This document shows positions 1,254 to 42,609 of a stretch of DNA of 55,715 bases, in pieces (position 1 is the first letter of the stretch; each line of letters starts with the position of its first letter). Origin of the DNA: Patescibacteria group bacterium (GTDB lineage Bacteria > Patescibacteriota > Patescibacteriia > DYGC01); assembly GCA_036769805.1 (NCBI GenBank), contig DAIPKK010000001.1, positions 1 through 55,715 of the forward strand, given 5' to 3'. The notes below the pieces were generated by a model. It searched no databases. It was not told the origin of the DNA and worked only from the letters and a program-made list of their open reading frames with translations. The position numbers and the translations under genes are program-made.

Positions 1254-1271
1254 GCCGCCTATTAGCTTGTG
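1254..1271 (+). repeat. 18-nt motif GCCGCCTATTAGCTTGTG (identical second copy at 42528-42545)
   Basis: Exact 18/18 repeat. 14/18 identical to the GCCGCCCATTAGCCCGAG end of the element at 30518. Complementary to an arm of the adjacent structured element. Confidence 0.7.
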
Positions 1272-1272
1272 T

Positions 1273-1409
1273 CACCACCTCTTAATTTTTATTTCACCCT
1301 CCTGGTCCGAACGGAAAATTTTGGGTTCGTTTTTCGTTTACACTTAAACTCACCTCAAAATTTTAACCTTCTCGGCCCAATGGGCGATATAAAAATTAAG
1401 AGGATGGTG
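1273..1409. repeat. structured non-coding element, copy 1 (candidate sRNA or MITE-like element)
   Basis: About nine of ten positions identical by eye to 42366-42498. Bounded by the inverted repeat CTCTTAATTTTT/AAAAATTAAGAG, with nested helices inside. No plausible ORF. Strand undetermined. Confidence 0.6.
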
Positions 1410-1448
1410 TAAATTTAGTTTATGTAAAAATAAGAATAAACAGATTGT

Positions 1449-1502
1449 CTTGTTCTAGCCCTTGTTCTATTTTTAAAAATTTGCTACAATACCAATGTAG
1501 CA
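1449..1502 (+). promoter_or_regulatory. lexA promoter with candidate operators
   Basis: -35 TTGTTC (1462-1467), 17-nt spacer, extended -10 TGcTACAAT (1482-1490). Direct repeat CTTGTTCTA x2 gives GTTC-N8-GTTC over the -35. Palindrome TGCTACA-N7-TGTAGCA (1482-1502) lies over the -10. Confidence 0.5.
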
Positions 1503-30517: not shown

Positions 30518-30699
30518 GCCGCCCATTAGCCCGAGGAGGTAAAAATTTGAAGGTGAGTTGGCTTGGTTTTGGCAAAGCCAAAATCCGAGCAGTTTGTTCG
30601 AGTCAACCGTTTTGGCTTTAAGAAAGACAAAACGGTGACGAGTTTGCGAGGAAAAGCCGGCGAACCTTATAAATTTTCCGTTCGGGCTAGCAGGGCGGC
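30518..30699. repeat. structured non-coding element, copy 3 (longer, inverted relative to copies 1 and 2; candidate sRNA)
   Basis: The reverse complement aligns with copies 1/2 at both arms, the CGAAC..GTTCG hairpin and the CTCACCT..AAATTTT..ACCT..CTCGG strand. Arm helices change sequence but keep pairing. A T6 tract follows on the + strand. I tentatively favour + here. Confidence 0.6.
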
Positions 30700-30817
30700 G
30701 TTTTTTGGTGCCACCTTTTGTACACACAAAAGGTGGCAAAGGGATTGTTTACAAACCCCAAATCAAAATGCTACAATCATTTAATACGATTATAATTTTT
30801 TAATTGAATAAAATCCT

Positions 30818-42223: not shown

Positions 42224-42244
42224 TATTGACTTGAATGATAAAAA

Positions 42245-42274
42245 AAGAAGCTCTAAATCGGGCTTCTTTTTTGT
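42245..42274 (+). terminator. intrinsic terminator
   Basis: AAGAAGC/GCTTCTT stem followed by a T run. Confidence 0.6.
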
Positions 42275-42365
42275 TTTTTAATTTTTGTTACGCCTACTAC
42301 GTTTATTCGCGATAATATTTTTGAACTGACAAATATGACAAAATTTTTGTGTCGTCCATTGGTAG

Positions 42366-42498
42366 TGCAACTCTTAATTTTTCTTTCGCCCTCCTGGTCC
42401 GAACGGAAAATTTTGGGTTCGTTTTCGTGTTAACTCAAACTCACCTCAAAATTTTAACCTTCTCGGACCAATGGGCGGCATAAAAATTAAGAGTCGCA
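42366..42498. repeat. structured non-coding element, copy 2
   Basis: Near-identical to 1273-1409. Same CTCTTAATTTTT/AAAAATTAAGAG inverted repeat, here extended by TGCAA/TCGCA. Confidence 0.6.
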
Positions 42499-42527
42499 AG
42501 AATGTACGGTGAAACACATTTTTTATG

Positions 42528-42545
42528 GCCGCCTATTAGCTTGTG
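42528..42545 (+). repeat. 18-nt motif GCCGCCTATTAGCTTGTG (second copy)
   Basis: Exact match to 1254-1271. Confidence 0.7.
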
Positions 42546-42609
42546 GACAACTTAAAAAAAGTTTACGTTAATTTAACGTTCACTATGCTATAATGAGTAA
42601 AAATAAATT

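Follow-up and report, generated by a model that had tools for sequence, protein, structure and literature searches.

A mosaic long-hairpin intergenic repeat family and its short form upstream of comEC in a Paceibacter-like Patescibacteria genome

The window analysed here is a stretch of 55,715 nucleotides, contig C51 of a Paceibacter-like Patescibacteria genome (G000; 820 kb in 79 contigs, 89% complete). Upstream of comEC it carries a hairpin, copy 2, built on a 12-bp inverted repeat (CTCTTAATTTTT at 42371-42382 and its complement at 42482-42493). A reading made from the sequence alone had located this repeat in two copies, copy 1 and copy 2, and both are where it put them. It had also noticed that the bases flanking the repeat are unlike in sequence yet complementary, and the same holds for a third copy, on contig C79. 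This arrangement raises two questions. First, do the private complementary bases belong to the repeat or to the DNA that it entered? Second, what is the exact 18-mer (GCCGCCTATTAGCTTGTG) that lies near copies 1 and 2, and does it act together with them?

The class of the object is a mosaic, hairpin-forming interspersed repeat of an ordinary kind (BIME, BOX, ERIC or MITE-like). As a whole, copy 2 is probably best explained as a compound, internally deleted short form (S form) of a mosaic long-hairpin intergenic repeat family. The features of the window that bear on this explanation are collected in Table 1.

Table 1. Coordinates of the repeat copies and neighbouring features in the window
Feature	Position	Strand	Details
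11-nt direct repeat ATTGTCTTGTT	left 1238-1248, right 1444-1454	+	bounds copy-1 composite
18-mer beside copy 1	1254-1271	+	stands in place of outer terminal motif
Copy 1 (S form)	1272-1409	+	private helix TCACCAC/GATGGTG around 12-bp repeat (1279-1290, 1391-1402)
Copy 3 (full L form)	30518-30737	-	body 30518-30699, spacer 30700-30709, hp1 30710-30737
Decayed outer terminal motif GTCGTCCATTGGT, copy 2	42351-42363	+	family motif GCCGCCCATTGGT; T-rich run 42344-42350 precedes
Left private helix half AGTGCAA, copy 2	42364-42370	+	TGCAA (42366-42370) pairs with 42494-42498
S-form core, copy 2	42371-42493	+	12-bp inverted repeat, both arms, short centre; conserved interior deleted
Right private helix half TCGCAAG, copy 2	42494-42500	+	TCGCA = 42494-42498
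18-mer near copy 2, truncated terminal arm of inverted L	42528-42545	+	T-run 42519-42524 precedes, as in intact copies
comEC promoter cassette	42542-42594	+	TGTGGACAA; GTTTACG 42561-42567; TATAAT 42589-42594

The long form and its distribution

The family was searched for in G000 and in its sister genome G001 (the MAG Candidatus Paceibacter sp. BE2012_3_39_12, the sole congener compared, giving two species of the genus) by BLAST, pattern scan and a covariance model of the core (R1). The core model found 13 matches in the 820-kb G000 and 11 in G001, and it matches copy 2 through the arms only. Across 401 genomes of the class it gave weak multi-copy matches in four. An exact-pattern scan of public genome contigs for the core word returned matches in the sister species only, and the hp1 pattern had no match among the viral contigs scanned.

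The long form (L form) is an element of ~220 nt consisting of a leader hairpin (hp1), an A-rich spacer, a terminal stem, a variable helix, A/T-rich arms and a conserved three-way core. The leader hairpin has the form GCCACCTTTTGT-nnnn-ACAAAAGGTGGC and its outer pairs covary; the spacer between it and the terminal stem reads ACCAAAAAAC; and the terminal motif spans 13 nt on each side (GCCGCCC.../...GGGCGGC). In L copies these GCCGCCC.../...GGGCGGC arms are the terminal inverted repeats; in S copies the 12-bp CTCTTAATTTTT is. Some L copies carry an additional small hairpin, hp0, and others (C50, C5 and G001:C16), designated type B, have a different interior. The type-B element at C50:3156-3348 is orthologous to that in G001:C25, with which it is 96.2% identical (176/183), against 85-89% for the flanking genes, and so evolves more slowly than its neighbours; among its seven differences there is one pair of the terminal stem that has changed with compensation.

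Two diverged members, C34:2199-2406 and C35:12757-12978, lack both hp1 and the GCCGCCC stem and have private outer inverted repeats instead, of 26 bp without mismatch in C34 and of 28 bp with one mismatch in C35. The idea that the 5′ outer arm of C34 is a decayed hp1 was rejected, as the alignment gives it no support. The weak core-model matches elsewhere in the class, those in G121, G370 and G383 among them, keep the unpaired AAACTCG and CTCAAACA with unrelated hairpin sequences, and sit within conserved non-coding units of ~400 nt that have a leader hairpin of their own. An Rfam search with these distant matches returned no family.

Occupancy differs between G000 and G001, and the indels are rarely element-precise. 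G001 has no element at the sites of copy 1, copy 2, C56 and C35, where either other repeats or nothing is found. In the comparison of orthologous sites that the sequence-only reading had proposed, presence and absence do differ, the C35 element being absent at the corresponding site G001:C31. For copies 1 and 2 the comparison yields no clean empty site, their counterparts in G001 being remodelled and occupied by inverted pairs of the GTAGGGGCGTTGCAGTGCAACGCCCC repeat. Where C79 has its S copy, G001 has an L copy, identically oriented, and a type-B copy stands downstream of lexA in G001 only, the window being without it. At the C56 site, which holds an L-plus-X composite in G000, G001:C11:1566-1763 carries clustered hairpin repeats of the GTCATTGCGAGG type; some intergenic sites thus attract repeats of more than one family. 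In other assemblies of the same population, checked for empty sites at the strain level, either the copies are identical or the assembly breaks inside the copy.

No ORF adjoins any copy, and a search for TnpB and Y1 transposases yielded no autonomous partner; no TnpB was found, G000 being 89% complete. A TnpB or IS200-type omega-RNA origin was rejected, as no TnpB was found and no ORF lies upstream of hp1. The sole Y1 transposase found is an interrupted RAYT-like gene (G001:C29:19100-19549) flanked by GTAGGGGCGTTGCAGTGCAACGCCCC palindromes. It belongs to that other repeat, the GTAGGGGCGTTGCAGTGCAACGCCCC REP family, and a RAYT/REP origin was rejected as well.

The short form, the 18-mer and the comEC promoter

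In the S form the core and hp1 are lost, and an extra outer tier is present, made up of the 12-bp CTCTTAATTTTT and a private helix of 7-8 bp. The three S copies (1, 2 and C79) align with L copies, G001:C5 for example, but without the core, and have the 12-mer tier in place of hp1. This alignment, together with the site and orientation that the C79 copy shares with an L copy in G001, suggests that the S form is a deletion derivative of the L form. S-type ends are confined to the G000 lineage, none being found in G001. The S core of copy 2 is 92.8-96.7% identical to those of copy 1 and C79, and its predicted fold is a single rod. On one side of it is a gene that has a terminator of its own (42241-42272), on the other the comEC promoter, and no promoter was found inside the element.

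The S copies differ in what surrounds the 12-bp repeat. The extension of copy 2 (TGCAA/TCGCA) forms four Watson-Crick pairs and one A-C, which is a G-T on the minus strand; that of copy 1 (CACCAC/GATGGTG) is paired with a 1-nt bulge; and that of C79 (16914-17036; TCCCGCC/GGCGGGA) likewise has a 1-nt bulge. The chance of a complementary flank of 5-7 bp is ~1e-3 for each copy, and with three independent S-copy flanks the complementarity is not due to chance. A further outer tier on both sides of the S copies was considered and rejected, palindromy beyond the private helix not being significant on the right side.

Around copy 1 the unit is larger than the hairpin. The two occurrences of ATTGTCTTGTT enclose 195 nt (1249-1443) comprising a T-run, the 18-mer, the private helix, the S core and a 41-nt tail, and ATTGTCTTGTT has no further occurrence in other intergenic DNA. 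G001 contains a single homologue of it, just before the lexA promoter; the right-hand occurrence in the window is native lexA-promoter sequence. The duplication looks like a target duplication of the whole copy-1 composite, that is, a MITE-like insertion of a larger unit. The sequence-only reading had seen no target-site duplication. This stands for copy 2, where no direct duplication of at least 8 nt was found (nor was one at C79 or copy 3), and fails for copy 1, whose composite is bracketed by the 11-bp pair.

The second question concerns the 18-mer. Both exact occurrences in the window lie at the positions first read for them, where shuffled sequences give an expectation of 0.03 matches, 1 nt from CACCAC in copy 1 and 29 nt from TCGCA in copy 2. 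Their identity to the arm of copy 3 (30518-30535) is 14/18, in agreement with the first count. Genome-wide there are six occurrences, five exact and one with a single mismatch. In C2, C56, C72 and C14 the 18-mer opens an intact L element, making up its first 18 nt from the 3′ arm, and continues GAGG(T/C)AAAAATTTGAAGGTGAG. This identifies the 18-mer as the terminal arm of L elements belonging to the TAGCTTGT subfamily, and bears out the suggestion that a second, inverted element left it behind. The two window occurrences both stop after ...TTGTG and are preceded by a T-run as at intact ends, and are therefore truncated L ends. Far from being scattered, as the sequence-only reading had recognised might be the case, the 18-mer is tied to the element: each of the six occurrences has an S-type 12-mer end at a distance of 8-163 nt, and 8 of the 10 S-type ends are near an 18-mer. 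Since the TAGCTTGT subfamily always adjoins S-type ends, the 18-mer and the S end travel as a single composite, as in copy 1, where both sit in the one unit bounded by the 11-bp duplication.

How the remainder of the L element near copy 2 came to be missing can be proposed from C72, where an intact inverted L is followed by hp1, hp0, ~45 nt and then a TTGTGGATAAC cassette, the same cassette that contains the comEC promoter. The word TTGTGGA is common to the L arm (GCTTGTGGAGG) and to the comEC promoter cassette (GTTGTGGATAAC), and removing the DNA between the two TTGTGGA words from the C72 layout gives the exact copy 2 junction. The rest of the L element would thus have been lost by deletion between the TTGTGGA of its arm and that of the cassette, and at copy 2 the 18-mer and the cassette have the TGTG of TTGTGGA in common, so that they overlap.

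The cassette follows the pattern TGTGGAyAA, 7 nt, AAAAGTTTACG ... TGCTATAAT and occurs at at least 14 loci of the genome. A near-identical arrangement (TGTGGATAA, 7 nt, AAAAGTTTACGTTAATTTAACGTTCA, then TGCTATAAT) precedes many unrelated genes, comEC included; loci besides the window include C20, C22, C25, C35, C37, C52, C66, C71, C72, C75 and C77. Read in reverse complement, TGTGGATAA is a perfect DnaA-box word, TTATCCACA. The cassette suggests that these genes share a site for a regulator, ~15 nt upstream of the -35 element.

The private helix and the level of pairing

Pairing was analysed over 63 predicted pairs in 14 L copies with slid controls. Across the 63 pairs 97.2% of cells are paired, compared with 35-52% in the slid controls, and 28 of the pairs show double changes, amounting to 102 cells, with G-U in 4 cells and A-C in about 7. 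As G-U is as rare as the A-C mismatch, neither strand is favoured, and the scarcity of wobble pairs together with the lack of strand bias argues against an RNA working on one strand. The earlier proposal of selection on a helix is upheld in that the helices are kept paired by compensated changes, and not in so far as it meant an RNA-specific helix. Because the pairing is strictly Watson-Crick and strand-symmetric, it is probably maintained at the DNA level, whether by selection for a hairpin or cruciform in the DNA, by replication switching template from one arm to the other, or by both. The conserved internal loops, and the words of the core that are conserved and unpaired, speak for a measure of selection in addition. 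Coding potential was discarded as an explanation: small ORFs across the element are not conserved, since hairpin indels shift the frame.

We propose that the private complementary bases are probably part of the repeat unit and not host target DNA. Four observations point this way. First, the left side is bracketed by a terminal motif; a 13-nt terminal motif ending in ATTGGT, with its T-run, is found 7-8 nt outside the 12-mer at 4 of the 10 S-type ends, being intact at two (C56 and C2) and decayed at the other two (copy 2 and C79), while in copy 1 the 18-mer takes its place. Second, in copy 1 the 11-bp duplication lies outside the private bases. Third, the private 24-bp outer helix of C35 is absent from the empty site in G001, which shows no palindrome. 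Fourth, no helix of the L copies varies more than the one adjoining the terminal motif, with double changes at 7 of its 7 pairs in the 14 copies. The private bases would accordingly act as the hypervariable helix of the family beside the terminal motif. Against their being such an internal helix is that the private helices of 7-8 bp share almost nothing although the S cores are near-identical. Point mutation and repair cannot account for such unlike helices between such cores, and no donor copy was found for any of the private helices. The lack of significant palindromy farther out on the right side and the palindrome at the C34 site, taken up below, count against it too.

A different answer, which we consider unlikely but the strongest of the alternatives, is that the S core (CTCTTAATTTTT...AAAAATTAAGAG) alone is mobile and enters the apex or centre of a palindrome or hairpin, directed by structure and not by sequence. 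The private bases would then be the two halves of a host palindrome, old copies of the family might serve as targets, and the comEC site would once have held an uninterrupted palindrome in which ...GGTAGTGCAA was joined directly to TCGCAAGAATG.... The three S copies with unrelated but complementary flanks fit this answer, as does the lack of a direct duplication at copy 2 and C79; moreover, at the site of C34 its outer 7-10 bp (CTTTTTA/TAAAAAG(CGC)) form a palindrome without interruption in G001, and the terminal motifs on the left of copy 2 and C79, being decayed, give the impression of a greater age than that of the cores. However, the palindrome-free empty site of C35 and the position of the 11-bp duplication outside the private helix of copy 1 both speak against it; empty minimal hairpins (terminal motif plus short stem) were looked for in the genome and none was found; and the one-sided S ends (C56, C2 and C14) have a private 7-mer without a partner.

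A related reading, which we hold to be doubtful, takes the family for a conserved functional element of this Patescibacteria class, acting at the DNA level as a single-strand hairpin or cruciform, which may grow and spread via a structure-directed step into the apices of existing hairpins. Private complementary flanks would result from such a step, which would imply a novel hairpin-specific nuclease or recombinase. The reading draws on the unpaired AAACTCG ... CTCAAACA kept across families of the class, on the slow change of the orthologous type-B copy and on the Watson-Crick pairing of both strands.

The private helix could also have grown in place. Template switching creates and repairs perfect stems in a single event (PMC8794818), and such a switch at the hairpin base, after the arrival of the S core, would have rewritten a few bases on one side to match those opposite, giving each locus an extension of its own. 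There is precedent for such a mechanism (PMC8794818, PMC13100816); the extensions, peculiar to each copy, are short, nearly perfect and placed at the hairpin base; and the changes within the family are almost all Watson-Crick doubles with no G-U intermediates. Even so, we judge this quite improbable: the left private bases are sandwiched between two conserved segments of the repeat, the terminal motif and the 12-mer; the conserved internal loops of the arms have never been corrected to perfect pairing in any copy; and private 7-mers are present at one-sided ends too.

We regard as very improbable a structured regulatory RNA, in which the transcribed element would toggle between the rod and a conformer whose 18-mer captures the ...CCAATGGGCGGC arm and so act on the neighbouring gene. 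The pairing with the adjacent arm foreseen by the sequence-only reading is indeed possible, with 11 pairs (one G-U) in copy 2 and 10 pairs (two G-U) in copy 1, the helices covary, and copy 2 lies upstream of comEC; but forcing the 18-mer onto the arm raises the predicted energy from -68.7 to -51.6 kcal/mol in copy 2 (+17.1) and from -53.5 to -26.2 kcal/mol in copy 1 (+27.3), so that the alternative conformer is not sustained, and the unconstrained folds of both copies keep the full rod and never use the 18-mer as a switch partner. The 18-mer is furthermore on opposite sides of the two copies and at unequal distances from them, is elsewhere the end of an L element, and lies upstream of the comEC promoter. 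Neither strand shows an excess of G-U, no promoter lies inside the element, and an Rfam covariance search with all three window copies gave no family at the gathering score and only noise at E up to 10. The 18-mer is thus predicted by folding to have no switching role.

Comparison with known repeats and significance

While the palindromic target and the in-place template switch are kept as live rivals, we return to copy 2 as probably the compound, deleted S form of a mosaic family. The family is newly found, while its kind is already known. Like the BIMEs and REP mosaics of enterobacteria, it forms intergenic mosaics of palindromic units and short motifs that vary in order and orientation, fold into hairpins and differ in occupancy between relatives. 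Different from them, it has no GTAG-type REP signature, and its units are much longer and contain a conserved three-way core; with respect to REP/REPIN elements served by a RAYT, the GTAG head is absent, and the RAYT-like gene of G001 is flanked by an unrelated REP family. With BOX of pneumococcus, ERIC/IRU and Correia elements it shares a non-coding, modular build of 100-220 nt with long imperfect inverted arms, a location between genes, deletion derivatives and, sometimes, terminator-like hairpins. It has no sequence relation to these, and is set apart by its private hypervariable helices, its asymmetric leader hairpin and the lack of a consistent target duplication (11 bp at one copy, none at two).

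Quasipalindrome template-switch mutation (PMC8794818; PMC13100816) resembles what is seen here in its multi-base complementary stem changes without G-U intermediates and in the growth of inverted repeats. It is, however, a mutational process and not a family of elements; its part here would be an inferred one, and private bases lying between conserved segments are left unexplained by it.

The analysis corrects the boundaries of the unit, the repeat being larger and more mosaic than first read, and clears a false lead, since there is no riboswitch-like toggle upstream of comEC. In reduced genomes with few mobile genes, hairpins kept by strand-symmetric Watson-Crick changes make the family a test case for selection versus template switching as the source of compensated stems, and likewise a test case for the mobilisation of repeats without a visible transposase.
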